A stretch of DNA of 39,742 bases. Source: a virus. Its lineage: Duplodnaviria > Heunggongvirae > Uroviricota > Caudoviricetes. The notes below the pieces were generated by a model. It searched no databases. It had not been told where the DNA came from and was given only the letters and a program-made list of their open reading frames with translations. Shown here piece by piece: positions 11,193-34,445 of this stretch; the first letter of the stretch is position 1; the number at the start of each line of letters is the position of its first letter. The stretch spans positions 1 through 39,742 of the IMG/VR virus record IMGVR_UViG_3300048850_000064; one strand, written 5' to 3'. A program made the position numbers and the translations under genes.

Positions 11193-11548
11193 TGGCGAAC
11201 AGGGTTTTGCTCGGCCTGCGCGGCTCCCAGTATGGTTTATGGGTCTCGAAACCTGGTCAGAACGTGCTGACGGCCGTCGATCCGAATCTGCTTTTCAGTA
11301 TCGACGACAAGGCGTTTCAGGTGGTTCAGTCCGGTGCGGTGGTTTTCAACTCTGCCGCCTACATCGACATCACCATTCCCAATCTCGGCTATTACCCGCT
11401 TGCGACCTTCACCTACAAGCAGGTGAACAATATGACCTTCTATATCGAGTATCTGAGCTTTACGACCATCCGCTTCAACCGCTCTCACACGACGGCAGAT
11501 ACTCGATCCTTCACCTATTACGTCATGACCTGCCCGGTGGGCTTCTGA
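11192..11548 (+). CDS. Small tail-tip accessory protein, paralogue 2 of 3
   Basis: Starts MANRVLLG...GLWVSKPGQNVLT....LLFS. Coupled to the previous gene by TGATG. Confidence 0.65.
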   Translation: MANRVLLGLRGSQYGLWVSKPGQNVLTAVDPNLLFSIDDKAFQVVQSGAVVFNSAAYIDITIPNLGYYPLATFTYKQVNNMTFYIEYLSFTTIRFNRSHTTADTRSFTYYVMTCPVGF

Positions 11549-11549
11549 C

Positions 11550-11936
11550 ATGGCGAACCGCATTCTCCTCAGTGCAACGGGTCTGAAGGTATCGGCAGCC
11601 GGACAGAACGTGCTGACCGCGACCGGCAACAATCTGCTGTTCGACAATTCCTATGCGGGCATGGGTCTCTACGTTCGCGGCTCACGAAGCATCTCGACCG
11701 GGACCGAAACGATCGCGCTTGGGAAGAACTTCTCCAGAACGCCCTTTATCGCGATGTCCGGCGAGGGCTTCGTTGCTGCCGGCCTGGGTGAGACCGGCTT
11801 CAAGAGTGGCGCGAGCACCTGGATTCTCACCTACGACGACGCGAATACGCGTCTGGTTCTGGCTCATAACTCCACTGCGGTCGGGCCTGCGGCGCGGCCA
11901 TACACCCTCTATTACGCTGTTTGGGATTGGGACTGA
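11550..11936 (+). CDS. Small tail-tip accessory protein, paralogue 3 of 3
   Basis: Starts MANRILLS..GLKVSAAGQNVLT....LLFD. Confidence 0.65.
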   Translation: MANRILLSATGLKVSAAGQNVLTATGNNLLFDNSYAGMGLYVRGSRSISTGTETIALGKNFSRTPFIAMSGEGFVAAGLGETGFKSGASTWILTYDDANTRLVLAHNSTAVGPAARPYTLYYAVWDWD

Positions 11937-21074: not shown

Positions 21075-22430
21075 ATGAGCGCAGCCCTGGAATTGGAAGA
21101 CGACGAGGATATCGGCGGCCCGGCCTACGAGTTCGACCTCGAATTCCAGAAGAAGATCGTCACGCTGCTCCTGCGCGACACCCAGTTTGCGCTGCGCGCC
21201 AAGGATCTCGTCGAGCCTGACTATTTTCTCGAAAAGGCCCACGGCTTCATCGTTTCGGTGATTAAGGACTTCGTTTCGACCTACAAGACCGTGCCCGATC
21301 GCGCCATCGTGCCGACGCTCATAAAGGACGAAATCGCTAAAAGACGAATTCGCGACGACCTCAAGGAGCCGATCAAGGACGCGCTGCGCGAAGGCCTGTC
21401 GAAGAAGGCCGACCTCTCCGGCTCGGCCTTCATTCTCGGCAAGGTCGGCGACTTCGCCAGGCACCAGGCGATCGAGAAGGCGATGATCGAGTCGATGAGG
21501 CTGCTCGAGAAGGGCGACTTCGCCGGCATCGAGAAGATCCAGAAGCGCGCCTTCAGCGTCGGCAAGGAAGTCGAAGGCGAGGAATACGACTACTGGAAGG
21601 AGATCGAGAGCCGCACCAAGGTTCGCGAGGACTTCAAGGCCGGCATCCTGGTTAGGAACGGCATCACGACCGGCATTTCCGAGTTCGACGCCCACCTCTA
21701 TCACGGCGGCTGGGGCCGGCAGGAACTGTCGCTGATCATGGGCGCGGCCAAGGCCGGCAAGTCGCTGTCGCTTGGCGAGTTCACCAAGAACGCCTCGCTT
21801 GCCGGATTCCAGACCTTCTATGCGTCCTGCGAAGTCTCGACCAGGATCATCGCCGATCGTATCGACGCGGCGCTTTCCGACACGGCCATGCGGCTGTTGA
21901 AGGACGATCCCGCGACCGTGCGCGCCAAGATCAAGGCGGCCGAGGCGAGGGCAGGGGCCTTCAAGATGCGCGACTTCGCATCCGGCACACTGAAGCCCTC
22001 GCAGCTTCACCGGATCATCGACAACTACCGCTCGGAAGGCATCATCTTCGACCTGGTCGCGGTCGACTACGCCGACATCATGGCCGCGGAATACCGCTCC
22101 GACAATCTGATCGACAATATGCGCTCGATCTATATCGACCTGCGCGCCATCGCCTGGGAGTTCAATCTCGCACTGCTGACCGCGACGCAGACCAACCGCG
22201 AAGGCGCCAAGAAGGCAACGGCCAAGGCCACCGACGTTGCCGAAGACTTCAACAAGATCCGCACGGCCGACGTCGTGCTCGGCATCAACGCGACCGATGA
22301 CGAGAAGGCATCGGGCGAGGCGCGCATCACCTGGGTCGCGTCCCGTAACTCTGAAGACGGCTTTTCCTTCCGCATCAGACAGGACCGCGAGAAACTTAAA
22401 TTTGTAACGGCGATCCTCGGCAAGGAGTGA
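21075..22430 (+). CDS. dnaB: Replicative DNA helicase, DnaB/T4 gp41-like (SF4)
   Basis: Walker A GAAKAGKS, SCEVS, VAVDYADIM Walker B, TATQTNREG, AEDFNKIRTAD, SRN. Confidence 0.9.
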   Translation: MSAALELEDDEDIGGPAYEFDLEFQKKIVTLLLRDTQFALRAKDLVEPDYFLEKAHGFIVSVIKDFVSTYKTVPDRAIVPTLIKDEIAKRRIRDDLKEPIKDALREGLSKKADLSGSAFILGKVGDFARHQAIEKAMIESMRLLEKGDFAGIEKIQKRAFSVGKEVEGEEYDYWKEIESRTKVREDFKAGILVRNGITTGISEFDAHLYHGGWGRQELSLIMGAAKAGKSLSLGEFTKNASLAGFQTFYASCEVSTRIIADRIDAALSDTAMRLLKDDPATVRAKIKAAEARAGAFKMRDFASGTLKPSQLHRIIDNYRSEGIIFDLVAVDYADIMAAEYRSDNLIDNMRSIYIDLRAIAWEFNLALLTATQTNREGAKKATAKATDVAEDFNKIRTADVVLGINATDDEKASGEARITWVASRNSEDGFSFRIRQDREKLKFVTAILGKE

Positions 22431-22492
22431 GGCGACCGGGTGCGGAATCCGGGAACCAACGCATATTCGCCATGAGCGATTAGGAGGCACAA

Positions 22493-23626
22493 GTGGATTT
22501 TGCCGAAGTCGAGCGTGAGCTCGACATGGAGTTTTTCTTCGAGCGCGAGAGCCTCGCCTACAAGATCGGGCGCGGCAGCTCCGGCATGCAGATCAACGCC
22601 AAGCACTGCCCGGCCTGTGGCGACGGCCGCTGGCGCACCTATTTCGGCGTCGACACCGGTCGCGGCAACTGCTTCGTCTGCAATGAGAGCTTCACCAAGG
22701 TCAGGTTCCTGCACTTTCATTTCGGCCACAACAACGACTGGCGCGAGACGGGCCGGGTCGCCGCCGAGCTGTTGAAGGAGCAGGGCTGGCGACCGAAGCG
22801 CATCATCACGGCCGCGGTCGAGGTCGGCGAGGTTAGGCTGCCCTATAGCAGCGAGCTGCCGCTTGCGAGCGGCGAGAACCTCGCCTATCTCGAAAATCGC
22901 GGCATCACCGGCGACTACACCAAATATTTCCACCTGCGCTGGTGCGAGGTCGGCTTCTGGCTCTACCGGCATGAAAGCGGCGAACTCAGGAAGCAGAACT
23001 TCAACGACCGCGTCATCATCCCGGTGTTCGATCTCGACGGCACCCTGGTCACCTTCCAGGGCCGCGATATCTCCGGCCGCTCCGAGAACAAGGATCTCGA
23101 GTTCCCGGTCCAGAAATACCTGTTCCCGAAGATGCTGCCGGGCACGGGCCGATTCCTCTTGAACGGCCAGAACGTCCACCTGACCAAGGATGTCGCGATG
23201 GGCGAGGGCGCTTTCGACGTCATCGCCCTGAAGATCGCCTTCGACCAGGAGGTGTCGCTGCGCCATGTCGTGCCGATCGGCTCGTTCGGCAAGCATCTGT
23301 CCTATGGCGCGCTCGACGGCAACGACCAGCTCGGCCGGCTGCTGAAACTGAAGGCGGCCGGCGTCGAGCGGGTGACGATCATGTGGGACGGCGAGGAAAA
23401 GGCGCTGACCTCGGCACTCGACGCGGCCAAGCTGATCACCGGCATTGGTATGGTCGCGCGCATCGGCCTGCTGCCGCCCGGCAAGGATCCGAACGAAGTG
23501 CCGCCCGAGGTTACCATCCGCGCCTATTACGAGGCGCGCACCTGGAACTCGAAGCTCGATCTGAAGTGGCGTCTGCAGAACCCATACTCGGCGCGGTATC
23601 GGCGGAACTACTTTTCCAGTCATTAA
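22493..23626 (+). CDS. dnaG: DNA primase (zinc-binding domain plus TOPRIM)
   Basis: GTG start after AGGAGG. CPAC...CFVC zinc domain, YLENRGI, DRVIIPV.D.DG.LV.FQGR, EGAFD, WDGE and KDPNE TOPRIM motifs. Confidence 0.88.
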   Translation: MDFAEVERELDMEFFFERESLAYKIGRGSSGMQINAKHCPACGDGRWRTYFGVDTGRGNCFVCNESFTKVRFLHFHFGHNNDWRETGRVAAELLKEQGWRPKRIITAAVEVGEVRLPYSSELPLASGENLAYLENRGITGDYTKYFHLRWCEVGFWLYRHESGELRKQNFNDRVIIPVFDLDGTLVTFQGRDISGRSENKDLEFPVQKYLFPKMLPGTGRFLLNGQNVHLTKDVAMGEGAFDVIALKIAFDQEVSLRHVVPIGSFGKHLSYGALDGNDQLGRLLKLKAAGVERVTIMWDGEEKALTSALDAAKLITGIGMVARIGLLPPGKDPNEVPPEVTIRAYYEARTWNSKLDLKWRLQNPYSARYRRNYFSSH

Positions 23627-23661
23627 TGAATGATCACCCGTCGCACGCTTGCTATAACGCA
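23618..23661 (+). promoter_or_regulatory. Operator plus GCTATAACGCA promoter motif, copy 3
   Basis: AGTCA-TTAA-TGAAT-GATC (23618-23635) overlapping the primase stop. TGCTATAACGCA at 23650-23661. Confidence 0.65.
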
Positions 23662-23694
23662 TGCAGAGACACAAAGAGAGAAAGGATTGAGCGA

Positions 23695-24222
23695 ATGAGC
23701 GCTTATCCGATGACCGTTCAGAAGGTCTATCTGGAGCATGTGGGCGGAACCAAGTTTTACGCCCTGACACTGATTTTCAACAGCAACGACAAGGCGCTTT
23801 TCATTCGGCGCTGGGGTCGCAAGGGCGTCTTCGGCGACATGATCGTCGAGGAGCACAACACCCACAAGGCCGGCGTCGCCGCCTACGAGAAGCTGCTGCG
23901 CGAAAAGAGCAGCGGCCGCAAGGGCTACGAGGTCAAGAGCGAAGGTCAGGACGACGTTCATGACGGCGTCGACGAGCTGCGGCGCGTCGTCGGTCTGGCC
24001 CAGTGGGCGAAGCTGTCGCCCAAGGCCCTCAAGCATATCGATCCGGCGATCGACACGACCGGCGTGCGCGAGCCCGATCCGCCGCGGTTCGATGAGAACG
24101 GCGACTATCTCGGCGAGGCGCCGGTGCGCAAGGTCGAGATCACCGAGGAGATGGTCGAGGCCGACAAGCGCGCCCGCATGGAGAGCGCCTACAGCTCCAA
24201 CCCGAAGTTCGGCATGTTCTGA
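23695..24222 (+). CDS. WGR-domain protein
   Basis: ATG 23695 after AAGGA. GTKFY.L.......F.RRWGRKG..G......A..AYEKLLREK...KGY is the WGR pattern. Ends YSSNPKFGMF. Confidence 0.75.
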   Translation: MSAYPMTVQKVYLEHVGGTKFYALTLIFNSNDKALFIRRWGRKGVFGDMIVEEHNTHKAGVAAYEKLLREKSSGRKGYEVKSEGQDDVHDGVDELRRVVGLAQWAKLSPKALKHIDPAIDTTGVREPDPPRFDENGDYLGEAPVRKVEITEEMVEADKRARMESAYSSNPKFGMF

Positions 24223-24503
24223 TGGACGAACTCCTCAGATCGTTACGCGGGGAGGCGCATAATCTCGAGGGAAGTGAGGTGACTGTCTGGCTTTCCAAGA
24301 GGTCGGCCGAGCTCGCATCGCATCCCGATCTCGACGCGATTTCCACGATCCTCGAGGATATCGGGACCATCGAACACGGACCCCACCAGGTCCGCGTGGT
24401 CAGCGCCCGCGTTCGCACCGTGATCCGACGTGCTCTTGCCCGGCGTGATGTCGAGCGGCGCGAGCGGCTCTACGAAAACAACTCAAAATACGGAATGTTC
24501 TGA
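24222..24503 (+). CDS. Hypothetical protein with shared C-terminal motif
   Basis: TGATG-coupled on both sides. Ends YENNSKYGMF. Confidence 0.65.
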   Translation: MDELLRSLRGEAHNLEGSEVTVWLSKRSAELASHPDLDAISTILEDIGTIEHGPHQVRVVSARVRTVIRRALARRDVERRERLYENNSKYGMF

Positions 24504-25075
24504 TGGCACAGGTTTCGTTTCAGAAGCGGGTGACGCTGTCCTACCGCAACAAGTTCACATTCACCTGCCCGATCTTCAATTCGAAGACGGAGATGGGCGC
24601 CTGCATGAAGCTGCGCGATCTCGTCTGGGCCGGCGCACAGGTCGACGTCCGGCGCGGCTGCCAGGCGGCTATGGGCTGCAGCATGTGCCCGGTCGCGGCA
24701 CTGGTCTCCATGCACATCTACAACAACAACTGGGACAATGACTTCCACGGTTCGATCGAGCCGAAGGAAGGCAAGCTGCACGCCCAGGTGCTCGATCGCG
24801 TCGCCCGCGTCATTCCGCGCGAGGACATCGTCAAGAAGCTCGGCCTGTCCGAGACCGAGCACAGTCTTCTCTATTCGGCGCGCGAACGCATTGCCGAGCA
24901 GCTCAAGACCGCTCCGGGCGAGAAGCCGAAAGCCGCATCCGATTACGAGGCGCCGGCGCGCGCATCCAAGCCCAAGCCGAAGAAGTCGGCGGCTCCCGCG
25001 CCAAAGACCGAAGACGCAGTCGCGACCGCAGCCAAGAGCGGCGATCTCGCCGCTGCAATCAACGCCGCAGCATAA
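24503..25075 (+). CDS. Hypothetical Cys-containing protein with a Lys/Ala/Pro-rich tail
   Basis: TCP...AC...GCQAAMGCSMCP (possible metal site). TGATG-coupled. Confidence 0.65.
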   Translation: MAQVSFQKRVTLSYRNKFTFTCPIFNSKTEMGACMKLRDLVWAGAQVDVRRGCQAAMGCSMCPVAALVSMHIYNNNWDNDFHGSIEPKEGKLHAQVLDRVARVIPREDIVKKLGLSETEHSLLYSARERIAEQLKTAPGEKPKAASDYEAPARASKPKPKKSAAPAPKTEDAVATAAKSGDLAAAINAAA

Positions 25076-25087
25076 CAAGGAGACAAA

Positions 25088-26470
25088 ATGCTGAGATTGA
25101 TCGAGGAGATCGCGGCCGAGTCCGGCCGCCTGGAAAAAGAAAAGCTGCTCGCCGAGCTCGCGGCGACGGACGAAGGCAAGTTCGTCCTCAAATGGACCTA
25201 CGACCCGTTCATCACCTATGGCGTCACGCCACCTCGCCAGCCTGGCACCGGTAAGTTCGAGTTCCGGCCGAGCCTGGTCAAGCCGCTGCTCGAGAAGCTC
25301 GCCGCGCGCAAGCTCACCGGCAATGCGGCGCAGGCCGAGATCGCCGAATGCATGAACGTGCTGAACGAGCGCGGCGCCGAGCTGCTCTGGCGCATCCTGT
25401 CGAAGGATCTCAAATGCGGCATTGGTGACGTGACGATCAAGAAGATGGCGCCGGGCCTGGTGCCGACCTTCTCGGTCATGCGCGCCCACAAGTTCGAGGA
25501 GAAGCGGATCAAGAAATGGCCGCAGATCGTCGAGCCGAAGCTCGACGGCTACCGCTTCACCTTCCTCTGTCGCGGCGGGCACGGTGGCTTCTTCTCGCGC
25601 TCGGGTATCCGTCAGCCGGCCGCCGACCACCTGGTCGAGCCGATGATCGCGACTGCCTTCAAGGCGGCGCATGGCAGCGAGGCGATTTGCGAGACGCTCG
25701 CCGAGATGAAATCGTTCAACGATGACCGCGCCAACCTCAATTTCATGGCCGACGGCGAAATGCTGATGGACGGTCACTTCAACGAGAACGGTGCGCTCCG
25801 GCGTCAGGACGAGCAGGCCGAGGGTGCGAAGTTCCATATCTTCGACCTGATGCCCTATGCCGACTTCGACGCCGTCGGCTCTGTCGGCCGACCCTATATG
25901 GAGCGGCGCACGCTTGTCGAGGAATTCGTCAAGCACGCAGCGACCCCGGAGATCACCAAGACGCCGCGCTATTTCGCCAATTCGTTCGAGGACATTCACA
26001 ATCTCTACGGCATGTTCCGCGAGCGCGGCCTCGAGGGCGCGATGGTCAAGAACCCCGAGGGCCTCTACGACAAGAAGAAGTCCTATGGCTGGCTCAAGAT
26101 CAAGGCCGAGGAAAGCGAGGATCTGCCGATCGTCGGAGCCTATCCCGGCGAGCCGAATACCAAATACGAACACTGCCTCGGCGGAGCTATTGTCAGGCGG
26201 CCCAACGGCGTCGAGGTGCGCGTAGGCGGTGGCTGGAGCGATCAGCAGCGCGAGGAGGTGTGGAAGGCCTATCAGGAGGATCTGGCCGAGCTCGAGCGCA
26301 ACGGCGCTACGCTCGAAGATCCGAGTTTCGATGGCCGGCCGCGCTTCCTGCTTCGCATGATCGAGGTGCTCTATCACGAGGAAACGCCCGACGGCTCGCT
26401 GCGTCACCCGCGCTTCAAGTGCTTCCGCGACGACAAAGCCGGGGAGGTCGAAGAAAAAGTTGCTGCCTGA
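25088..26470 (+). CDS. ATP-dependent DNA ligase
   Basis: Motif I EPKLDGYR, III ADGEM, IIIa FHIFD, IV EGAMVK, V WLKIK, VI LRHPRF. AGGAG RBS. Confidence 0.95.
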   Translation: MLRLIEEIAAESGRLEKEKLLAELAATDEGKFVLKWTYDPFITYGVTPPRQPGTGKFEFRPSLVKPLLEKLAARKLTGNAAQAEIAECMNVLNERGAELLWRILSKDLKCGIGDVTIKKMAPGLVPTFSVMRAHKFEEKRIKKWPQIVEPKLDGYRFTFLCRGGHGGFFSRSGIRQPAADHLVEPMIATAFKAAHGSEAICETLAEMKSFNDDRANLNFMADGEMLMDGHFNENGALRRQDEQAEGAKFHIFDLMPYADFDAVGSVGRPYMERRTLVEEFVKHAATPEITKTPRYFANSFEDIHNLYGMFRERGLEGAMVKNPEGLYDKKKSYGWLKIKAEESEDLPIVGAYPGEPNTKYEHCLGGAIVRRPNGVEVRVGGGWSDQQREEVWKAYQEDLAELERNGATLEDPSFDGRPRFLLRMIEVLYHEETPDGSLRHPRFKCFRDDKAGEVEEKVAA

Positions 26471-26475
26471 CGTGA

Positions 26476-26500
26476 TCAGTGATCACTGAATTGCTATAAT
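26476..26500 (+). promoter_or_regulatory. Extended -10 promoter with an operator-like palindrome
   Basis: Perfect palindrome TCAGTGATCACTGA (26476-26489), then TG-C-TATAAT (26492-26500), just after the ligase stop. Confidence 0.6.
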
Positions 26501-26506
26501 ACCCAC

Positions 26507-26595
26507 ATCTCCGGATCCCTGACGACTTGGGTCAAAGTCGCTTTCTTGTGTCTCTCTCAAAGGTCGCCCCTAATCCCTGGGCGACCTTTTTTTTT
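26507..26595 (+). ncRNA. Predicted trans-acting small RNA (~90 nt)
   Basis: Bounded by the TATAAT promoter and a strong intrinsic terminator. Internal hairpin CGACTT/AAGTCG (26523-26540) and a single-stranded pyrimidine tract at 26541-26558. No ORF. The start site is inferred from -10 spacing. Confidence 0.55.
26559..26595 (+). terminator. Intrinsic terminator
   Basis: AAAGGTCGCCC/GGGCGACCTTT 11-bp stem, 9-nt loop, T9 run. Abuts the repC stop on the other strand. Confidence 0.85.
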
Positions 26596-27697
26596 AATGC
26601 GCTCGTCGCCGGCGCAGCGCGCGGATCTCCTCGACGAGCTCGATCCGGCCATCGCCGACCATCCGGGCATAGGTCCGGAAGTAGCCGCCGAAATTGCGGA
26701 TCTTCTTGCCGCCGTCGTCGTCATAGGCCTGCAGCACCAGGAAGAAGGCCACGGCAGCCGCGACCGGCCCCAGTTTCTCGCAAGCCTCGCTCCAGGCGCT
26801 TTCATGCGTGCCATAGGTGCCGCGCAACCGTCCGGCCGCTCGCACCAGGTCGCGACTATTCTCGACCTCGCCGGCAAGCGCGAAGGCGTCAGGGCAAGCC
26901 GCGGCCAGGTCGATCAGGTTGGGCACGGCCGGTGCCTCACCATTATCTCGCGGCCCTTTGTTACAAGACTGGTCAGGTGAATCGTTGTTGTTCTCTTTGA
27001 GGGGGCAATTCTTGCCGGCACAGGCGGCTTTATATCTTTCTTCGGCTTGCGCTTTGAGAGCTTGCCAGCGGGCCAGGGATGCGTCAGGAGCGACGTTTGC
27101 GTTGCGCCGCGGTGTCTGGCCCTGCTCGGCCTCGAATGCGCTCTCGAGGTCGTCTGCCGGCGCCTCCCATTCCTGGATCGCCAGGATCAGCTCCCTGACC
27201 GATCGCCGGCAGATGGTGATCTCGTCGAAGAGGTGCTCGATCGCCTCGCGCCTGACCTTCAGCCGCTCGACCAGCGCTCCGAACTCGGCCTTCCGGGCGA
27301 CGATCGGGGAGAGGTCGAGGCCATAGGCGTCGATGATCTGGCCGCTCCGCGCGCGCCGGGCGTAGCGCTTGCCATTTGGCGAGTCCTTCGACGTGACGAC
27401 GCCGCGGTCGATCAGTCCTTTGATCGCATAGCGGATCGTCCGCTCGGAAAGACCGGTGCGCTCCATCAGGAACTCGTTCGAAGGCCAGACCAGCAACCGG
27501 CCCTGGATCGGTTCGCCCTGGTAGCAGCCGACGAGCTGGTCGAGGACGAAGCGCAGCGCCGGCTTCAGCGCCAGTGCCTGCACCGCGAGCCGACCGGCCG
27601 CAAACAGCTCGTTACGACTGACCTCGTCCGGCGCCTGGGCAACAAGCGCTATTGCCGGCGAAATCTTTCGCCAGCCAGTGTTCTCATGAGTTTGCAC
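26594..27697 (-). CDS. repC: RepC-family plasmid replication initiator
   Basis: WPSN..L..R.GLSERT.R..I..L...G.....DSPNGKRYARR...G.I..AYG.DL.PI..R..EF is the hallmark RepC N-terminal domain. C-terminal ACPD and I.NFGGY.R motifs. GTG start with a GGGGA RBS. Confidence 0.88.
   Translation of the reverse strand: MQTHENTGWRKISPAIALVAQAPDEVSRNELFAAGRLAVQALALKPALRFVLDQLVGCYQGEPIQGRLLVWPSNEFLMERTGLSERTIRYAIKGLIDRGVVTSKDSPNGKRYARRARSGQIIDAYGLDLSPIVARKAEFGALVERLKVRREAIEHLFDEITICRRSVRELILAIQEWEAPADDLESAFEAEQGQTPRRNANVAPDASLARWQALKAQAEERYKAACAGKNCPLKENNNDSPDQSCNKGPRDNGEAPAVPNLIDLAAACPDAFALAGEVENSRDLVRAAGRLRGTYGTHESAWSEACEKLGPVAAAVAFFLVLQAYDDDGGKKIRNFGGYFRTYARMVGDGRIELVEEIRALRRRRAH
26940..27050. other. 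Candidate replication origin inside repC
   Basis: AT-rich patch in the inter-domain linker of repC containing a GANTC site (26979-26983). In repABC replicons oriV lies in such a region. Boundaries are approximate. Confidence 0.4.
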
Positions 27698-27704
27698 GTC
27701 TCAA

Positions 27705-27748
27705 TCCCCAAATCGGGACAAAGCTTCGCCGTCTCTCCGCGAAGAGAG
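27705..27748 (-). promoter_or_regulatory. Structured repC leader (S-element-like)
   Basis: Hairpin TCCC/GGGA (27705-27718) pairs the repC SD. Two mutually exclusive stems: CTTCGC/GCGAAG (27724-27744) and CTCTC/GAGAG (27733-27748). Confidence 0.4.
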
Positions 27749-27777
27749 TTGACAAATCAGTGGTGATTCGGGATAAC
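27749..27777 (+). promoter_or_regulatory. ctRNA promoter, antisense to the repC leader
   Basis: TTGACA (27749-27754), 17 bp, GATAAC (27772-27777), with a GANTC site (27765-27769) in the spacer. Confidence 0.8.
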
Positions 27778-27783
27778 CAGAGT

Positions 27784-27852
27784 GCATGTAGGTGTTCCCG
27801 AACACCGAGATTTTAAACGCTCTGAGACTGCAATCTCAGAGCGTTTTGCTTT
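27784..27852 (+). ncRNA. Counter-transcribed RNA (ctRNA) controlling repC
   Basis: About 65-70 nt between the promoter and terminator, with two hairpins (GGTGTTC/GAACACC and a 13-bp terminator stem). Position, size and orientation match repABC ctRNAs. Confidence 0.75.
27815..27852 (+). terminator. ctRNA intrinsic terminator
   Basis: AAACGCTCTGAGA/TCTCAGAGCGTTT 13-bp stem, 6-nt loop, then TGCTTT. Confidence 0.8.
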
Positions 27853-27858
27853 GTCGAG

Positions 27859-28077
27859 TTACCTAAGTCCTTCGATCCAATTGTTGACAGCAACGGCGAC
27901 CAGCTCCGAACGGTTGCGAAACCGACCGGACTTCACGAACTCATCCAGTTTTGCCTTTAAGCTCTCGTCGAGCCAGATTTGCATCTGGGTCTCGCCTTTG
28001 GCTTGGCGCGATTTCCGAAACTTCTCGGCCCGCCGTTTTGCTCCACTGTCCTGAAAACTCATGACCTGTTCCAACAC
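27859..28077 (-). CDS. Ribbon-helix-helix (CopG/MetJ-like) DNA-binding protein upstream of repC
   Basis: QMQIWLDESLKAKLDEFVKSGRFRNRSELVAVAV fits the RHH pattern. The start could be the ATG at 28062. Confidence 0.65.
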   Translation of the reverse strand: MLEQVMSFQDSGAKRRAEKFRKSRQAKGETQMQIWLDESLKAKLDEFVKSGRFRNRSELVAVAVNNWIEGLR

Positions 28078-28179
28078 ACGTTGCTAGTTACGTGCCTAGT
28101 GATGACCGATTCGTCATGATTCTGGAAGCCCTACGGCGCCGCGCGTCAAAATTGCAGGGCATACACGCTTTGATTGCAA

Positions 28180-28207
28180 AAGTCGCATAAGACTACTTAT
28201 GGAACTT
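28180..28207 (+). other. dif-like XerCD recombination site (28 bp)
   Basis: AAGTCGCATAA-GACTAC-TTATGGAACTT has the 11-6-11 layout. Inner CGCATAA and TTATG are identical to E. coli dif (GGTGCGCATAA-TGTATA-TTATGTTAAAT). Confidence 0.7.
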
Positions 28208-28242
28208 TATGGTAAAGTGCTAAAATTATCGCCAGCAGATTC

Positions 28243-28281
28243 ATTCATTGTTGACTTAATATCGCCAAGTCAGTAATGAGT
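28243..28281. promoter_or_regulatory. Tandem operators upstream of the repressor candidate
   Basis: ATTCA-TTGT-TGACT (28243-28256) and AGTCA-GTAA-TGAGT (28268-28281). Confidence 0.6.
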
Positions 28282-28322
28282 GATTCCATAACTCTTTACC
28301 GGGATACGTCCCGCAGTTGCGT

Positions 28323-28358
28323 TGCTATATAGAGACACAGACGCGACACAAGACACAA
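28323..28358 (+). promoter_or_regulatory. TGCTATATA -10 and a leader with three GACACA repeats
   Basis: TGCTATATA (28323-28331), AGAGACACA (28331-28339), GACACAAGA (28345-28353), AGACACAA (28351-28358). Confidence 0.5.
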
Positions 28359-28392
28359 CGAGAGTTTACATAGGAAGGGGATTAATAAACCA

Positions 28393-28827
28393 ATGCCAAC
28401 CGTTAGGAAGCCTTACGCGGAAACCCGCGCGGCACAGTTTCTTGAAAAGCGCATCGAGCAGCTTCAGAGCCGTAAGAGCCAGCGCGAGATCGCTCAGGAC
28501 ATCGGCTTCGCTCAGCCGCAGGCACTGTCGATGATGAAGACTGGCGAGCTGAAGATCCCGCTCGACCGTGTTCCCGCTTTTGCTCGCGCCCTTGAAGTTG
28601 ATGCCGCAAACCTTTTCCGCATGGTGCTGGAACAGCATCTGCGTGGCGAGGAGCTCACCAAGACCATCAACGAGATTTTCGGCGTGGTGGTGTCCAAGAA
28701 CGAGCGTCAGTTCATCGAGCTGATCCGCAATGTGTCGAACGATACCGACCCGGCACTGACCGACAAGCTCGCAGCCGAGCTGACCACGGTGCTCCAGGAG
28801 AACCTACCCGCTACGACCGGCGCCTGA
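28393..28827 (+). CDS. XRE/Cro-CI-type HTH regulator, master repressor candidate
   Basis: SQREIAQDIGF..PQALSMMKTG..KIPLDRVPAFARALEVD HTH. Monocistronic, with its own terminator and upstream operators. Confidence 0.8.
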   Translation: MPTVRKPYAETRAAQFLEKRIEQLQSRKSQREIAQDIGFAQPQALSMMKTGELKIPLDRVPAFARALEVDAANLFRMVLEQHLRGEELTKTINEIFGVVVSKNERQFIELIRNVSNDTDPALTDKLAAELTTVLQENLPATTGA

Positions 28828-28831
28828 AGAC

Positions 28832-28874
28832 GCAAGAAAAAGCCACTGCGGGGTTGGTAGTGGCTTTTTCTTGC
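28832..28874. terminator. Bidirectional intrinsic terminator
   Basis: Perfect 16-bp inverted repeat GCAAGAAAAAGCCACT/AGTGGCTTTTTCTTGC with an 11-nt loop. Confidence 0.85.
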
Positions 28875-28882
28875 TTCTGAGG

Positions 28883-28900
28883 AGTCAGTAATTACTGACT
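28883..28900. promoter_or_regulatory. Operator (perfect 18-bp palindrome)
   Basis: AGTCAGTAATTACTGACT, flanked by GANTC sites at 28882 and 28901. Confidence 0.75.
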
Positions 28901-28951
28901 GATTCCTTAATCTTTCCATCAACACACAAAGTAAAACAATAAGGACTTGCA

Positions 28952-29167
28952 ATGACGCTGACCAAGGACAAGATCGACCGCGTAGCTGAAATCACCTACG
29001 ACGAGGCCGTAGCAGAAATCGTAAAGCTTAGTGAAGTAAAACGCCATACGGTCGGTGGAACAGAAGTGTTCGCCGGTCTGCATCCCGAGCTTGGTCCTAT
29101 CCATATTGTTTTGCCTGTAATGGGCGGAGGGATGCTGTTGTTGCCTTTTGCTATCCATAATTTTTAA
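28952..29167 (+). CDS. Small AT-rich hypothetical protein between two operators
   Basis: TAAGGA RBS, 71 aa, hydrophobic C-terminus, codon use unlike the flanking genes. Confidence 0.55.
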   Translation: MTLTKDKIDRVAEITYDEAVAEIVKLSEVKRHTVGGTEVFAGLHPELGPIHIVLPVMGGGMLLLPFAIHNF

Positions 29168-29174
29168 TGTTACT

Positions 29175-29196
29175 AGTCATTCATAACTGACTGACA
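29175..29196. promoter_or_regulatory. Operator upstream of the cobT-like gene
   Basis: AGTCA-TTCATAAC-TGACT-GACA. Confidence 0.65.
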
Positions 29197-29211
29197 CAGA
29201 GGGATAGCAAG

Positions 29212-31917
29212 ATGAAGAAGGAGATCCAGGAGCTTCGTGAGGTCATCGCGAAGCTTGTGCCGCTGTTGACGGGCAAAGGTCTGGTCGTGACCCAGCGCGG
29301 CACGAAAGCCTATGTCAGCGTCCACCGCGTCACCAAGAAGCCGGAGCGGGTCAATATTCCCAACGTCTCCGACAATGCCGACGCGGACTTCATCCGCGCC
29401 ATCCAGGGCTTCATCGACCATGAGTGCGCCCACGTCCTCTATACGGACTGGGAATCCTATCTGCTGCCCGGCGATCCGGAAGATCCGAAGATCAAGCGCC
29501 AGCAGAACATGGTCAACATCATTGAGGACACGTTCATCGAGCGCCGCATCGTAGTGGATCTACCCGGCGCCCGGCGCAACCTGTCCGACACGCGCCGATT
29601 CTTCCTCGAGCGCGTCACCGGCCCGGCACTTGCCAGCGCCGCAACACCCCAGGAACAGCTTTCTTACCTCATCGTGCCGATGATGCGTGCGCTCGCCGGC
29701 CATGAGGAAATGCAGGAGTTCATGGACAAGAACGGCTACTGGTCGCTGCCACTCATTAAGGCGCTGCGCGACAAGATGCCGGAAAAGTTGGTCAAGTCGC
29801 TGCCGGAACTGAAGCACACCCGCGAATGCGTCGCTGTCGCCCTCGAGATCGACCAGATCCTCTATCCGCCACCGCCTGCCCCGCCCGTCCTCGAGTCGGT
29901 CGATCCCGCAGAAGTCTCCACGGCCGGCAACGACAAGGTGTCGATCTATGGCGATCATCTGCGCGAAGTGCGCGAAGTCCGGATCGGCGGCAAGCGTTGC
30001 CCGCGCTGGAAGACGGTGCTGACGTCCGCGGAAGCGGCCAAGACTGGCGACCTTGCGGCCGCGCTCGGCGGTGGCAGTCATATTCTGGCGATCACGCCGA
30101 AGCTCGATCCTGGCGTCTATGACGTCGAGGTCGTCACCGACGCCGGCCGCGGCGTGCTGCCGGCCGCCTTCACCTTTGTCGAACCGCCGGCAAAGCCCGC
30201 GTCCGAAGAGGACGAGGACGGCAAGAGCGAGGACAAGCCCGACAAGAAGGCCGACGAGGGCGATGGCAAGGGCGAGCGCGACCACAGCGAAAGCGAGCCG
30301 GGCGACGAAGGTGCCGGCGCATCCAGCGATGACGCCGATGACGACGAGAGCGAAGGTGATTCCTCTGCTGACAAGGGCAAGCCTGGCAAGCCCAAGAAGG
30401 GAGACAAGGAGAAGGATGAAGGCGCCGGCGACGAAAAGGACGAGGACGATCCCGCCGCTGGGTCGGACGAATCTTCTGACGATGGCAAAACTGGAGATGA
30501 AGAGGACGACAAGGACGCCGACGACGCCGGTGCTGACGAAGATGACGCTGAATCGGGGTCTGATGAAGGCTCTGACGACGAAGACGGCGATGCGGGTGAA
30601 GATGACGTGGCTCCGGAGGCTGACGAGGACGACGAGCGCGACGGTGAAGGTGCCGGTGACGGAGAGGACGAGGACGAATCTGAGGATAGCGATGGAGCTG
30701 CTGCTTCGTCCGACGCCGCTGATGTCGATGAAGACGAGGATGACGGCGCTGGCGATGCGGGCTCGGGCGATGAGGAAGACGCCGACGAGGACGACGGCTC
30801 GGGTGATGTAGACGACGGCGAGGCCGGCGAAGACATCCAGTTCGACGATCACGACTGGGACGCCGCTTCGCTGTCGGATGACGATTCCGACGAGGAGGGC
30901 GAACCTGGCGTCGGTGGCGACAAGTCGTCAAAGTCCATGTTCGATCTGGACGACGACGCGCTCGAGGATGCGGATCTGTCGAAGGCGATCTGCGTGATCG
31001 TCACCAATGACGCGATCAATTCCATGAGCCGTTCGGACTACACGGTCTATACCCGCGAGTTCGACCGCATCGAGCACTACGACGCCCCGCCTGCTGGCGA
31101 CGCCTATATCCCTCGCCTCGAGGAAGAGGTGCGATCGATGGTCGGCAAGATGCAGAAGGACATCGAGCGCATGCTCGCCGCCCAGAGCCAGGTGATCAGG
31201 AACCCTGGTCTGCGCTCCGGCCGCCTGCACGCCCCGAATCTGCATCGGTTGATGGCCGGCGACGACCGCATCTTCTACCGCAAGGCCGAGCACAAGTCGA
31301 AGGACACGGCGGTCACGCTGATGATCGACAACTCCGGCTCGATGAACGGCGCCAAGTGCCAGACCGCGATGGTCTCCGGCTATGCGCTGTCGTCCACGCT
31401 CGATCGCTGCAACATTCCGCACGAAGTCCTCGGCTTCACGACCGGCGGGTTTGACGTGCCGAGGTCGATCTATGAAGGGATGCTGAACGAAATGCGCGAG
31501 ACCGGCATTCGCTTCAACAGGCAGATCCCGATTCACATTCCGATCTACAAGGACTTCGACGAACGGATCTCGCCTATGGTCAAGCGCCGCATCGCGACGA
31601 TGGCCTATAGCCAGGTCGGACTTGCCGGCAACATCGACGGCGAGTCCCTCGAATATGGCGCAGTCAGGCTGTTGAAGCGACGCGAGAAGCGCAAGGTTAT
31701 GATCGTCCTGTCCGACGGTCATCCGGTCGAGGCACGCGACGCCTCGGCGCACTTGAAACTGGTCGTTAAAGATCTGACGAAGATCGGCATAGAAATGATC
31801 GGCATCGGCATCAAGGATAATGCCGTCCGCTCCTTCTATCCGAAGCACGTCGTCCTCAACAACCTCAACGACCTGCCCGGTCAGGTGATGAACGAGCTCA
31901 AGGCGATTCTCGCCTGA
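29212..31917 (+). CDS. cobT: CobT-like VWA protein with HExxH domain, inserted IPT/TIG domain and acidic linker
   Basis: N-terminal DHECAH...NIIED..IE. IPT/TIG-like block at about 29884-30186. D/E-rich tract. C-terminal VWA with MIDAS DNSGS...T...LSDG. The symbol denotes the family only. Confidence 0.8.
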   Translation: MKKEIQELREVIAKLVPLLTGKGLVVTQRGTKAYVSVHRVTKKPERVNIPNVSDNADADFIRAIQGFIDHECAHVLYTDWESYLLPGDPEDPKIKRQQNMVNIIEDTFIERRIVVDLPGARRNLSDTRRFFLERVTGPALASAATPQEQLSYLIVPMMRALAGHEEMQEFMDKNGYWSLPLIKALRDKMPEKLVKSLPELKHTRECVAVALEIDQILYPPPPAPPVLESVDPAEVSTAGNDKVSIYGDHLREVREVRIGGKRCPRWKTVLTSAEAAKTGDLAAALGGGSHILAITPKLDPGVYDVEVVTDAGRGVLPAAFTFVEPPAKPASEEDEDGKSEDKPDKKADEGDGKGERDHSESEPGDEGAGASSDDADDDESEGDSSADKGKPGKPKKGDKEKDEGAGDEKDEDDPAAGSDESSDDGKTGDEEDDKDADDAGADEDDAESGSDEGSDDEDGDAGEDDVAPEADEDDERDGEGAGDGEDEDESEDSDGAAASSDAADVDEDEDDGAGDAGSGDEEDADEDDGSGDVDDGEAGEDIQFDDHDWDAASLSDDDSDEEGEPGVGGDKSSKSMFDLDDDALEDADLSKAICVIVTNDAINSMSRSDYTVYTREFDRIEHYDAPPAGDAYIPRLEEEVRSMVGKMQKDIERMLAAQSQVIRNPGLRSGRLHAPNLHRLMAGDDRIFYRKAEHKSKDTAVTLMIDNSGSMNGAKCQTAMVSGYALSSTLDRCNIPHEVLGFTTGGFDVPRSIYEGMLNEMRETGIRFNRQIPIHIPIYKDFDERISPMVKRRIATMAYSQVGLAGNIDGESLEYGAVRLLKRREKRKVMIVLSDGHPVEARDASAHLKLVVKDLTKIGIEMIGIGIKDNAVRSFYPKHVVLNNLNDLPGQVMNELKAILA
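30205..30903 (+). repeat. Low-complexity Asp/Glu-rich coding tract
   Basis: About 230 codons dominated by GAC/GAT/GAG/GAA/GGC, in frame within the cobT-like gene. Confidence 0.9.
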
Positions 31918-31934
31918 ACTTTTCCTTTTGGTAA

Positions 31935-31993
31935 GCGTCGGGTTCAGTCATTACTGACTTGCAACCCGACGCAAAAGTCAGTAATTAATGACT
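31935..31993. promoter_or_regulatory. Two operators, the first nested in a larger inverted repeat
   Basis: GCGTCGGGTT (31935-31944) and AACCCGACGC (31963-31972) enclose AGTCA-TTAC-TGACT (31946-31959). Second site AGTCA-GTAATTAA-TGACT at 31976-31993. Confidence 0.7.
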
Positions 31994-32041
31994 GTATTCG
32001 CGTTTGAGAAGCGCGATCTGAGAGAACGGAGACACAAGAGC

Positions 32042-33274
32042 ATGGCCGACGCTGCCGAACTGAACGACGACCCGATTATCTGCCAGATTGACAATCAGAA
32101 GTGCCATTCGATCCAGCTTCACATTTCCAAATATCATTCGGAGGAATGGACCCTCGAGCGCTACAAGGCCGAGTATCCGGGCGCTCCGCTCCTGTCGGAA
32201 AAAGCCAAGCGCCGCATCGCCGAGCAGCGCGCCGCGAAAGCCGCCGGCTCCTCCCACGAGGAGGCTGTCGCCATGCGTAAGGCCTATTTCCACGAGCTGT
32301 TCGATCTTGGCACCAAGGCCAAGGCCGCCTTCAACAAGATGGGTCATCCGATCGAAGTGACGGTCGTCGATTCCCATAGCGAGCTGTCGGCGCCCTACAT
32401 CGAGACGGTCAATCCGAACTACGTCTTCAACATCGATCTCACCAAGAAGGTGCTGATCGGCATGGAGCTTCGAAAGCCCGTCTATCTCTGGGGCTATCAC
32501 GGCACCGGCAAGACGACCCTGTTCGAGCAGATCGCCGCCCGCACGCGCCGGCCGTTCATGCGCGTCCAGCACACGATCAACACCGAAGAAAGCCACATCC
32601 TCGGCCAGTATGTCGTGCGCTCCAAGCCCGTCGAGGTCGAGGAGCTCGGCGCCGACGGCAAGATCGTAAAGGTCATCAAGCAGCAGACCGTCACCGAGTT
32701 CCAGCTCGGCCCGCTGCCGCTGGCGATGCTCGAAGGCATGGTCTACTGCGCCGACGAATACGACTTCGCAATGCCGTCGGTCGTCGCCGTCTACCAGTCG
32801 GTGCTCGAGGGCAAGGCGCTCGTCATCAAGGATGCGCCGCCCGAGTATCGCGTGATCAAGCCGCATCCGAACTTCCGCTTCTGCGCGACCGGCAACACCA
32901 ACGGCGTCGGCGACGAGACCGGGCTCTATCAGGGCACCTTGATCCAGAACGCCGCGAACTATTCGCGCTTCGCGATCACCGAAGAGGTGACCTACATGGA
33001 TCCGAAGATCGAGGAGAGCGTCATCGTCGGCCAGGCCGGCATCGATCGCGACGACGCTGCCAAGCTCGTCAAGTTCGCCAAGGATATTCGCACGTCCTTT
33101 GCCGACGGCAAGATCGGCATGACGGTGTCGCCGCGCGAGCTGATCAACGCCGCCGAACTCGGGCTCGTCATGGGCGGTGACTGGACGAGCGGCGTGAAGC
33201 TCGCATTCGCCAACCGTCTGTCGCGCACCGACAAGAAGGTCGTCGAGGAATACGCCCAGAGGATCTTCGGATGA
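32042..33274 (+). CDS. cobS: CobS-like (MoxR-family) AAA+ ATPase with an N-terminal zinc-finger-like domain
   Basis: ATG 32042 after GGAG. YVFN..LTK.V, Walker A GYHGTGKT, Walker B ADEYD, HPNFRF.ATGNT.G.GD..GLY.GT..QN.AN..RF. The symbol denotes the family only. Confidence 0.88.
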   Translation: MADAAELNDDPIICQIDNQKCHSIQLHISKYHSEEWTLERYKAEYPGAPLLSEKAKRRIAEQRAAKAAGSSHEEAVAMRKAYFHELFDLGTKAKAAFNKMGHPIEVTVVDSHSELSAPYIETVNPNYVFNIDLTKKVLIGMELRKPVYLWGYHGTGKTTLFEQIAARTRRPFMRVQHTINTEESHILGQYVVRSKPVEVEELGADGKIVKVIKQQTVTEFQLGPLPLAMLEGMVYCADEYDFAMPSVVAVYQSVLEGKALVIKDAPPEYRVIKPHPNFRFCATGNTNGVGDETGLYQGTLIQNAANYSRFAITEEVTYMDPKIEESVIVGQAGIDRDDAAKLVKFAKDIRTSFADGKIGMTVSPRELINAAELGLVMGGDWTSGVKLAFANRLSRTDKKVVEEYAQRIFG

Positions 33275-33915
33275 TGAACTGGCGCGACAGCGAACGCGCC
33301 GTCAAGGCGTTCTCCCATCGTGTCATGCGTCGGCTCGTTGCAGCCGGCGCGTCCGCCGACCTCGCGCAGGACGTTCGCCAGGAGCTCTGGGTCGCCTGGT
33401 GCATCGCTCGCGATTCCTATCGCGAGGACAGCCCCGCGACCTTCATGACCTATCTGCACAACGGCATGCGCATGCACATCAACACCTGGGCGCGCAGCAA
33501 CGTCAACAAGCGCCATCAGGAGGTCATCGCCTATTCGCTCGATCACTCGGGCGGCCCGGATGACGAAGAGGGCGAGAGCCTGCAGGCGCGCATTGCCTCG
33601 GCTGATCCCACGCCGGACGTCGCGGTGTTCGAAGAGGATCGCTGGCAGAAGTCGATTGCGCTCCTGTCGCCGCGCACCCGGAAGTTCATCGAGCTCCTGC
33701 GCGAGCCGCCGGCCTGCCTGCTCGCCGAGGTCCGCGCGCTCGAGGCCAAGTCCAGCTACGCCAAGAGCAAGGGTGTCTCGATGCCCTTTGCCAATCGGGT
33801 CACCACGACGCTCATCTTCGACGCGATGGGCGCGCCCCGTTCCGAACGACTTCGCATCGCCCGCGAGCTGCGCGAGGTCTCTGAATACATGCAGACCCTA
33901 GAGAACGACATATGA
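33271..33915 (+). CDS. Sigma-70-like transcription factor
   Basis: Region-2-like DVRQELWVAW..A...Y.....ATFMTYL, region-3-like SLD......GESL...IA....TPD, then LSPR. The region 4.2 HTH is not recognisable. Confidence 0.6.
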   Translation: MMNWRDSERAVKAFSHRVMRRLVAAGASADLAQDVRQELWVAWCIARDSYREDSPATFMTYLHNGMRMHINTWARSNVNKRHQEVIAYSLDHSGGPDDEEGESLQARIASADPTPDVAVFEEDRWQKSIALLSPRTRKFIELLREPPACLLAEVRALEAKSSYAKSKGVSMPFANRVTTTLIFDAMGAPRSERLRIARELREVSEYMQTLENDI

Positions 33916-34445
33916 CAACGATTCCGCATTTCGCGCCTGGCTGTTTCGGTTCGGCGCTCGCATTCCAGGAAGATCATTCCGTTTGCCGCGGCTGCAAGTT
34001 CCTGGCCGATTGCAAACCGCTCCACGAGCAGAATCTCGAAACGCTGCGTGTGGCGATGGGGATTACGGAAGCTCCGCGGCGCTTCCAGATGGCCGAGCCG
34101 ACACCGGAAAACCCGACACCGGGCGCGATGGTGCTGCCGAAGAAGGTGATGGAAGAAGCCGAGCGCCTCGATGCGATGGGTCTCGATATCGTCCCGAAGA
34201 TGCAGCGCGGCGAAAACCCCTTCTCGAAGGAGTTCAAGAAATACCTCTATGTCGCCGCGCACATGCTGATGCACGTCAAGGGCGCGCTCAAGCACCAGCA
34301 GATCGCGGCCGCCTATGTCAGCCGCCTCAACTACACGACCAAGACCGCCGACGCTCTGGCGCGCCAGGCCGTCCAGATCTTCCAGCATATCGGCGCGATT
34401 GAGCAGACGCAGACCGGCTACCGGCTGCGCAGGGCGGAAAACTGA
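33912..34445 (+). CDS. Hypothetical protein with an N-terminal 4-Cys motif and possible C-terminal winged helix
   Basis: PGCFG...VCRGC..LADC. The C-terminal helix-helix-wing assignment is a guess from the pattern. Confidence 0.6.
   Translation: MTTIPHFAPGCFGSALAFQEDHSVCRGCKFLADCKPLHEQNLETLRVAMGITEAPRRFQMAEPTPENPTPGAMVLPKKVMEEAERLDAMGLDIVPKMQRGENPFSKEFKKYLYVAAHMLMHVKGALKHQQIAAAYVSRLNYTTKTADALARQAVQIFQHIGAIEQTQTGYRLRRAEN

Follow-up and report, generated by a model that had tools for sequence, protein, structure and literature searches.

A predicted phage small RNA between the DNA ligase and repC genes with an exposed tract complementary to a motif in phage mRNA leaders

The DNA analysed here (the window, 39,742 nucleotides of the caudoviricete virus record IMGVR_UViG_3300048850_000064) is the opening part of a complete phage genome, which is 115,768 bp long and has direct terminal repeats. 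Between a gene for an ATP-dependent DNA ligase and a convergent repC-type replication initiator gene lies a short segment for which the original prediction had proposed a small RNA (sRNA) with an unpaired core complementary to several of the phage's mRNA leaders. The question raised by this locus is whether the segment encodes a regulatory RNA and on which genes such an RNA would act. Our best explanation is that positions 26506–26595 of the plus strand encode a trans-acting RNA of approximately 90 nt, probably assisted by an Hfq protein, which would cover ribosome-binding sites (RBS) and repress promoter-proximal phage genes. We consider this explanation probable, with room for doubt. From the sequence we infer the transcription of the RNA, its pairing in vivo, the sign of its effect (repression), and its use of a phage Hfq.

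The analysis of the unit recovered the proposed promoter, hairpin, CU-rich tract, and T9 terminator, each in its predicted place and with no plausible open reading frame (ORF) among them (Table 1). The sole frame in the unit has a TTG start and runs antisense to repC. The −10 box of the unit's own promoter is of the recurrent type of this phage and is kept in the homologous units; the start of transcription was placed from the sequence. The terminator stem (26559–26589) consists of GGTCGCCC/GGGCGACC plus three A-U pairs, and the T9 run at 26587–26595 ends one base into the repC stop codon (26594–26596, minus strand). A run of about six or more U after a terminator is an Hfq-binding module, and the RNA has U9 at this position, with U5–U9 in the homologues. 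The fold of the RNA has a predicted energy of −27.8 kcal/mol (z = −3.65 against shuffles). The seed tract is unpaired in the centroid fold, with a mean unpaired probability of 0.70.

The search for possible targets covered 176 leaders of this phage. Gene starts were taken from a simple in-house caller, which agrees with the annotation of the cultured phage RHEph10 at 43 of 54 starts. The 8-mer GAGACACA has eight copies on the plus strand of the 115,768-bp genome, the strand that carries nearly all of the genes, and all eight are located in 5′ leaders, 1–53 nt before the start codon. Its one copy on the minus strand, genome-wide, is the tract of the RNA itself. The idea of a regulatory pairing would have been weakened if GAGACACAA had been common on both strands; the count gave eight copies on the plus strand, all in leaders, and one on the minus strand, in the RNA tract. 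GAGACACA was found in 7 of the 176 leaders against 0.185 expected from leader composition, and no 8-mer occurred in more than five leaders of the shuffled sets. An unbiased ranking placed it first among strand-specific leader 8-mers, directly after the palindromic operator words. Most genes carrying it are the first gene after a TGCTATA promoter. It stands at no constant distance from either the promoter or the start codon, so that it is neither a fixed Shine-Dalgarno (SD) sequence nor a fixed promoter element.

The pairing energies agreed with the motif counts. The ten best leader duplexes of the real seed averaged −20.1 kcal/mol, compared with −16.5 ± 1.1 kcal/mol for composition-matched shuffled seeds, and 1 of 200 shuffled seeds paired with the leaders as well as the real one. 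The target motifs are mostly unpaired (0.45–0.85). By prediction, the RNA has the seed properties of the sRNA class, that is, an accessible seed and eight perfect sites of 8-mer length or longer in leaders.

The best predicted target is the leader of the cobS-like gene, which encodes an AAA+ MoxR-type protein (Pfam AAA_5 and CbbQ_C). The 11/11 complementarity claimed for this leader was confirmed. The site is located 3–13 nt before ATG 32042, over the SD region, and its duplex (−22.6 kcal/mol) ranks first among the 176 leaders. The pairing proposed for the leader of the WGR-domain gene also held: a 10/10 complement at 23665–23674 is followed by further pairs with a bulge (−20.3 kcal/mol, rank 3/176). 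The WGR motif starts approximately 7 nt past the −10 box TGCTATAAC (23650), which places it at the 5′ end of the mRNA. The three 8-of-9 matches predicted in the leader of the helix-turn-helix (HTH) regulator, or repressor, gene were found as GAGACACAG, GCGACACAA, and AAGACACAA at 28332, 28343, and 28350, just past the promoter TGCTATATA at 28323. This leader ranks 6/176, and the gene product is a PHROG transcriptional regulator. The first of the three copies may lie partly upstream of the transcription start. Two further proposals lost weight in the ranking. The 8/9 match at the RBS of the ligase gene is present, but it is at background level (rank 109/176). The ACAAGAA match in the leader of the Hfq-like gene is likewise background (rank 86/176).

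Table 1. Coordinates of the predicted RNA unit, its putative target sites, and other features of the phage (window positions unless genome positions are indicated)
Feature	Position	Strand	Basis or remark
Predicted RNA unit	26492–26595	+	phage-type promoter, hairpin, unpaired tract, terminator
Promoter −10 element TGCTATAAT (TG-extended TATAAT)	26492–26500	+	inferred transcription start ~26506–26508
14-bp perfect palindrome TCAGTGATCACTGA	26476–26489		spacer/−35 region of the RNA promoter
5′ hairpin, 6-bp stem CGACUU/AAGUCG (DNA CGACTT/AAGTCG), loop GGGUCA	26523–26540	+	folds
CU-rich unpaired seed tract CUUUCUUGUGUCUCUCUC(AAA)	26541–26561	+	complement contains GAGACACAAGA
Tract as DNA, CTTTCTTGTGTCTCTCTC	26541–26558	+	sequence
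Rho-independent terminator, 11-bp stem, 9-nt loop, U9 tail	26559–26595	+	sequence, fold
GAGACACA leader sites (genome positions)	23666, 28332, 32029, 45635, 46961, 57820 (rIIA-like), 67201, 78097	+	
Best predicted target, cobS-like (AAA+ MoxR-type) leader GAGACACAAGA	32029–32039	+	11/11 complement
Predicted target, WGR-domain gene leader AGAGACACAAAGAGAGAA	23665–23682	+	ATG 23695
Predicted target, HTH regulator gene leader	28332–28358	+	three overlapping 8-of-9 matches; ATG 28393
Hfq/Sm-like protein, 95 aa	20786–21073	+	profile matches, AlphaFold model, Foldseek
ATP-dependent DNA ligase gene, upstream neighbour	25088–26470	+	Pfam DNA_ligase_A_M and others; synteny
repC-type replication initiator gene, convergent neighbour	26594–27697	−	Pfam RP-C (8.9e-46), RP-C_C
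TCAGTCATTACTGA-type operators in the window (examples)	10765, 12901, 21045, 28886, 31945, 31979, 39070		
TGCTATA promoters with YCCCG (genome positions)	23650, 28323, 45589, 46944, 54511, 67165, 70796, 74250, others		

The phage is distantly related to Rhizobium phage RHEph10 and to the RHph_Y2/N1/X66 phages (ligase/repC DNA identity 68–74%). In the comparisons below, G000 is the present phage, G001 and G002 are its two nearest relatives (ligase 57–58% identical), G001–G005 are five near-complete IMG/VR genomes, and L011 and L014 are fragments. The gene order of the locus is kept among the relatives: helicase, primase, WGR, and ligase genes are followed by repC and a CopG-type gene on the minus strand, and then by genes for the HTH regulator, CobT-like protein, CobS-like protein, and sigma factor. 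The unit is present as a single copy at the same place, bounded by the repC stop and by the ligase gene or a small ORF that follows it, in at least ten RHEph10-like phages (G001, G002, G003, G004, G005, RHEph10, Y2_11, N1_15, L011, and L014). The RHEph10 copy is located at 33236–33311 of JX483881. Each of the homologous units carries the −10 box of its own phage's promoter type. They fold as a 5′ hairpin, an unpaired CU-rich tract of 12–20 nt, usually AAC(U), and a terminator, with z values from −2.7 to −5.5. The terminator stem covaries over ten homologues, with double changes in five of nine pairs. The sequence of the 5′ stem differs among the three closest phages, with its pairing and a GGGUYAA-type loop kept.

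A covariance model of the unit (R1) found exactly one copy per genome among the holders and no copy in X66, V1VFA-S, G006, G007, L061, L062, and L063. The single copy per genome and the absence from some relatives indicate that the element is a conserved but dispensable single-copy gene. The repC search of viral contigs gave three loci, and a metagenome scan by ligase alignment gave three further loci (L061–L063), none of which has the small-RNA unit. In L061 (metagenome contig Ga0182741_1000257; ligase 59% identical), a small ORF runs into the repC stop at 11400–11700 and there is no unit. The WGR and cobS leaders of L061 share no GA-type motif, and no Hfq-like gene was found within the fetched 21.4-kb locus (10 kb on each side of the ligase gene). 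L061 is a natural minus-RNA control.

The seed and the leader motif change together in the nearest relatives. GAGACACA is absent from the G001 and G002 genomes. The seed of these two phages is UUUCUCUCUC, and their top leader motif is GAGAGAGAAA; the top leader 8-mers GAGAGAGA, AGAGAGAA, and GAGAGAAA are the complement of their own seed and lie 0–17 nt from start codons. The shuffled-seed z values were −3.5 for G000, −4.5 for G001, and −6.5 for G002, and 0 of 100 shuffles were as good. The orthologous leaders of the cobS-like, WGR, rIIA-like, and g46979 genes contain GAGACACA in G000 and GAGAGAGA(A) in G001/G002, and the leaders of the WGR orthologues in G001/G002 carry GAGAGAGAA(A). The longest perfect complement between the cobS-like leader and the phage's own seed was 11, 11, 11, 7, 9, 7, and 6 nt in seven phages. 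A test of own against permuted seeds gave P = 0.0008 for the cobS-like leader and 0.013 and 0.03 for two other leaders, and the same test gave 0.49 and 0.14 for two internal control genes. We regard these co-variation tests as supportive, not conclusive. The original idea of an RNA core complementary to several leaders is strengthened in that the unit is conserved, GAGACACA is the top leader motif, and seed and motif change together in the nearest relatives. The covariation that had been looked for in relatives was thus found in G001 and G002, but the RHEph10 subgroup (G003 and G005) lacks the extended match.

Significant seed–leader pairing and an extended private code were found only in the clade of G000, G001, and G002. 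The seed–leader match of G004 and RHEph10 is barely better than that of shuffles. GAGACACA as a target of the whole family was rejected, because it is absent from G001/G002 and not enriched in G003–G005. The tract exposed in the RHEph10 subgroup has the sequence (G)AUCUCCUUUCC (L002, 4640–4730, for RHEph10; L060, 7509–7583, for N1_15). This tract resembles the 3′ end of alphaproteobacterial 16S rRNA, which we take to be GAUCACCUCCUUUCU.

A possible partner of the RNA is encoded by the phage itself. The 95-aa protein listed in Table 1 matched Pfam LSM with E = 1.6e-3 and 18.6 bits, below the cut-off of 23.4, and had no Pfam Hfq match and no PHROG family. Among its sub-threshold PDB profile matches, 30 of 32 were Sm, LSm, or Hfq proteins. 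The AlphaFold2 model has the elements of an Sm fold, a helix (H37–43) and five strands, with a core predicted local distance difference test score (pLDDT) of 80–88. The 39 best Foldseek matches in PDB were all Hfq, with a target template modelling (TM) score of 0.68–0.84 and a root mean square deviation of approximately 1–1.7 Å over approximately 60 residues. In an alignment of six sequences, the invariant residues Q38, D67-Q68-F69, and K86 fall, by an eye-made mapping, at the positions of Q8, D40-Q41-F42, and K56 of Hfq, which are residues of the proximal face. The protein also has a basic N-terminal extension of 35 residues, modelled with low confidence. Homologues were found in G001, G002, and a few metagenomic proteins and are absent from G003–G005 and RHEph10, and the gene co-occurs exactly with significant seed–leader pairing (G000, G001, and G002). 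In G001, the leader of the Hfq-like gene itself carries the leader motif. The co-occurrence with seed–leader pairing suggests that the Hfq-like protein is the likely chaperone of the predicted RNA.

The promoter of the unit resembles those of other phage genes. The genome has 17 copies of the −10 motif T[GT]CTATA, every one of them on the plus strand and mostly just upstream of gene starts. CAGT..ACTG palindromes occur 28 times, of which approximately 25 are of the operator type TCAGTCATTACTGA, with variants carrying a centre of 4–6 nt, and these mostly stand beside TGCTATA promoters. The palindrome TCAGTGATCACTGA at the RNA promoter is a 12/14 variant of this phage-wide operator. The phage-type promoter and the operator variant indicate that the unit is wired into the same transcriptional circuit as its putative targets. 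Many TGCTATA promoters have a conserved YCCCG approximately 12–14 nt upstream in place of a sigma-70 type −35 element. The RNA's own promoter has no YCCCG and carries the operator variant there instead. The operator words differ in the sister phages, being TAAGTAAGCGCTTAG in G001/G002 and AATATTGATTGA in the RHEph10 group. The 144-aa HTH protein (28393–28827) is a candidate for the operator-binding protein. The phage also encodes a sigma-70 region-2 protein (33271–33915).

We propose the following mechanism. The RNA would be transcribed from the phage-type promoter, with an operator in its spacer, and would stop at the U9 terminator. Its unpaired tract, consisting of the core UUGUGUCUC and flanking CU repeats, would pair with GAGACACA(A) in at least eight mostly promoter-proximal leaders. 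The putative targets are the cobS-like, WGR, and HTH regulator genes in the window and the leaders at 45635, 46961, 57820, 67201, and 78097 beyond it. Since six or seven of the eight sites lie within approximately 20 nt of the start codon, the pairing should block ribosome binding and repress translation. The RNA may in this way act as a delayed negative loop on operator-controlled transcription units, and the phage Hfq-like protein would probably bind the U-tail and speed annealing. We also suggest, more tentatively, a self-contained regulon built from one RNA, a phage-owned Hfq-type chaperone, and a leader code private to the phage (GAGACACAA; GAGAGAGAAA in the sister phages), in which each RNA would act only on the genes of its own phage; this is possible, and we would not call it probable.

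Several observations weigh against the proposed mechanism. The permutation tests ignore shared ancestry, and neither G001/G002 nor G003/G005/RHEph10 are independent of each other; the co-variation also depends on gene starts from the simple caller, with its 43 of 54 agreeing starts. G003 and G005 keep the RNA and UGUGUCUC, yet their pairing with leaders is no better than that of shuffles (z = −0.7 and +0.2). GAGACACA is not enriched in G003–G005, and G003/G005 have 0–2 non-self copies. The fold predicted for the G003/G005 RNAs sequesters UUGUG by pairing within the 5′ hairpin, so that a generic anti-SD tract, UCUCCUUUC, remains exposed. The ancestral role of the family may therefore have been different or weaker, perhaps that of a generic anti-SD RNA. 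The leader motifs overlap purine-rich SD sequences, and the G001/G002 motif is of low complexity; any CU-rich RNA would show some of this complementarity. With more than 20 nt between them and the start codon downstream, the HTH and WGR sites are less obvious candidates for simple RBS occlusion. Finally, the terminator of the RNA also ends the ligase operon, so that the tract would exist in a 3′ untranslated region (UTR) as well.

This last point leads to the simplest alternative, that the unit serves only to end transcription from both sides, as terminator and 3′ UTR for the ligase operon and as a stop for the convergent repC, with an unused −10-like box and a tract that has no function in trans. 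The unit does lie exactly between convergent genes, its hairpin is flanked by an A-tract and a U-tract, the promoter scanner called no full −35/−10 promoter on the plus strand, and the relatives X66, V1VFA-S, G006, and L061 manage without it. However, a −10 box of the type proper to each phage stands at a similar distance in all homologues, and a terminator would need neither the 5′ hairpin with its conserved loop nor the unpaired tract, all of which are retained. A terminator also does not account for a tract that co-varies with leader motifs elsewhere in the genome, and we consider this alternative unlikely. To the same degree we doubt that the RNA is chiefly host-directed, as a generic anti-SD RNA similar to the 16S 3′ end or as a competitor for Hfq, with the phage matches being secondary; such a role can coexist with the repression of phage genes. 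It would fit the CU-rich anti-SD tract that all family members keep (UCUCCUUUC in the RHEph10 group), even those without a special match to phage leaders, and there are known phage sRNAs, VpdS and PreS, that regulate host targets and are competitors for Hfq (PMC12197685). A host-only role, however, does not predict phage leader motifs that change with the seed.

The position of the unit suggests a further alternative, since it always abuts the repC stop codon and repABC replicons normally control repC through antisense RNAs. The RNA could be mainly cis-antisense to repC read-through transcripts, which would be degraded or sequestered, tuning a plasmid-type replication; a role in trans could exist beside it. 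Such read-through would be permitted by the minus-strand hairpin, after which there is only UUU in this phage and no U-tract at all in RHEph10. Against this, the known repC counter-transcripts lie upstream and pair with the leader, whereas the overlap of this RNA with repC is limited to the stop codon; for seed pairing, the repC leader has rank 29/176, relatives with repC and without the RNA exist, and the leader motif and its co-variation are left unexplained. We find a mainly repC-directed role slightly harder still to credit. The original prediction had itself named as its alternative that the motif is an orientation-independent site in double-stranded DNA. In that case, GAGACACA(A) would be bound by a phage protein and the copy in the RNA unit would be merely another site. 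Most copies do adjoin promoters and operators, and the copy at 28332 is immediately next to a −10 box, and part of it may escape transcription. But the eight copies have one orientation and stand downstream of promoters, 1–53 nt from start codons and at variable distances from the −10 box, and the equivalent motif of G001/G002 is at the RBS itself, 0–17 nt from the start codon. The sole inverted copy coincides with the unpaired tract of a unit that is conserved and RNA-like, and the true palindromic operator of the phage is a different sequence. Strand bias and placement at the RBS therefore disfavour a DNA site, which we regard as very improbable.

The trans-acting anti-RBS RNA, our preferred explanation, has partial parallels in known systems. 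The phage regulatory RNAs known so far are mostly cis-antisense or act on single operons or host genes. The C4 RNA of P1/P7 (immI) and the CI RNA of P4 pair with their own mRNA leader over the RBS and shut down downstream genes. The C4 RNA (Rfam RF01695), P4 CI, and N15 CA are similar to the present RNA in that short exposed sequences face leader sites in plasmid-type prophages. C4 and CI are processed from the operon that they control and act on one transcript at two or three repeated sites, whereas the present RNA would have its own promoter and at least eight dispersed targets. Membership in C4 was rejected, as RF01695 gave no match at gathering score in the window or in seven homologous loci and none up to E = 10 locally. 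A C4-like placement was also rejected, because the unit lies between the convergent ligase and repC genes and its targets are 3–50 kb away.

Rhizobial sRNAs of the AbcR1/2 and alpha-r14/NfeR1 type, which come from the host group of this phage, are short and Hfq-associated; their unpaired CU-rich anti-SD motifs block the RBS of many mRNAs. They are chromosomal and control bacterial regulons, whereas the seed of this phage extends past the SD complement into the phage-specific ACACAA. The covariance-model search gave no match to these sRNAs, the best weak hits, such as suhB/MmgR (17 bits against a threshold of 41 bits), being noise. The T4 endoribonuclease RegB and the T4 repressor RegA shut off early and middle phage mRNAs through a short RBS motif, which is GGAG for RegB. 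They are a functional analogy only, as both are proteins and are unrelated in sequence and mechanism. The counter-transcribed RNA (ctRNA, inc-alpha) of repABC replicons is likewise a small terminator-ended RNA next to repC in alphaproteobacterial replicons. Identity with it was rejected, since the unit is at the 3′ end of repC, not upstream, and the repC leader ranks 29/176.

The closest functional parallels are VpdS of phage VP882 and PreS of lambda, which are Hfq-dependent trans-acting phage sRNAs; VpdS regulates both phage and host mRNAs (PMC12197685). They share with the present RNA a stand-alone phage sRNA and a terminator U-tail, and VP882 is also a plasmid-like prophage. Unlike the RNA proposed here, they use host Hfq, have mainly host targets, and are unrelated in sequence, and neither a shared private phage leader motif nor a phage-encoded Hfq has been reported for VpdS or PreS. 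What would be new relative to the known cases is one RNA facing a motif of many dispersed leaders, the co-evolution of seed and motif, and the Hfq-like protein of the phage. If confirmed, it would be a compact natural sRNA regulon owned by a virus, chaperone included. It would also make seed–target co-evolution tractable to study, since RHEph10, a cultured relative, infects Rhizobium etli CFN42. A private co-evolving code, if true, could determine the specificity of RNA-based immunity or timing. In large rhizobial phage-plasmids of the RHEph10/pLM21S1 type, this may add a layer of temporal or immunity control.

Searches for known RNAs and for transcripts covered the unit and its surroundings. 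No transfer RNA or transfer-messenger RNA was found, and no Rfam family matched at gathering score in the window or in the seven homologous loci. Weak local covariance matches (ncr982, suhB/MmgR, NsiR4, and others; at most 22 bits) were rejected as terminator-driven noise. A search of sequencing runs with the 121-nt unit found no RNA dataset among the runs that contain it. The soil metatranscriptome X2 had no contig over 26411–28014, and such contigs cannot show RNA ends or strand; low-depth contigs (2–7×) of the neighbouring HTH, CobT-like, and CobS-like genes were present in it.

On the minus strand (26559–26596), the shared hairpin is followed by only UUU, and in RHEph10 by no U-tract. Transcripts of repC may read through this hairpin and would then become fully antisense to the predicted RNA. 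A perfect 13-bp inverted repeat, AAACGCTCTGAGA ... TCTCAGAGCGTTT, is located at 27815–27846 (plus strand) between repC and the CopG-type gene and overlaps a minus-strand promoter-like site. For the repC module, this repeat may serve as an operator or as a counter-transcript element.

The literature discusses RHEph10 both for the plasmid genes that it carries and for its homology to the phage-plasmid pLM21S1 (PMC7969092). The present phage is probably a phage-plasmid as well. In the soil-metagenome DNA run X1, which probably represents the sample of origin, the word depth over window positions 22000–34000 was approximately 1,700–2,300, indicating that the phage was very abundant in that sample.

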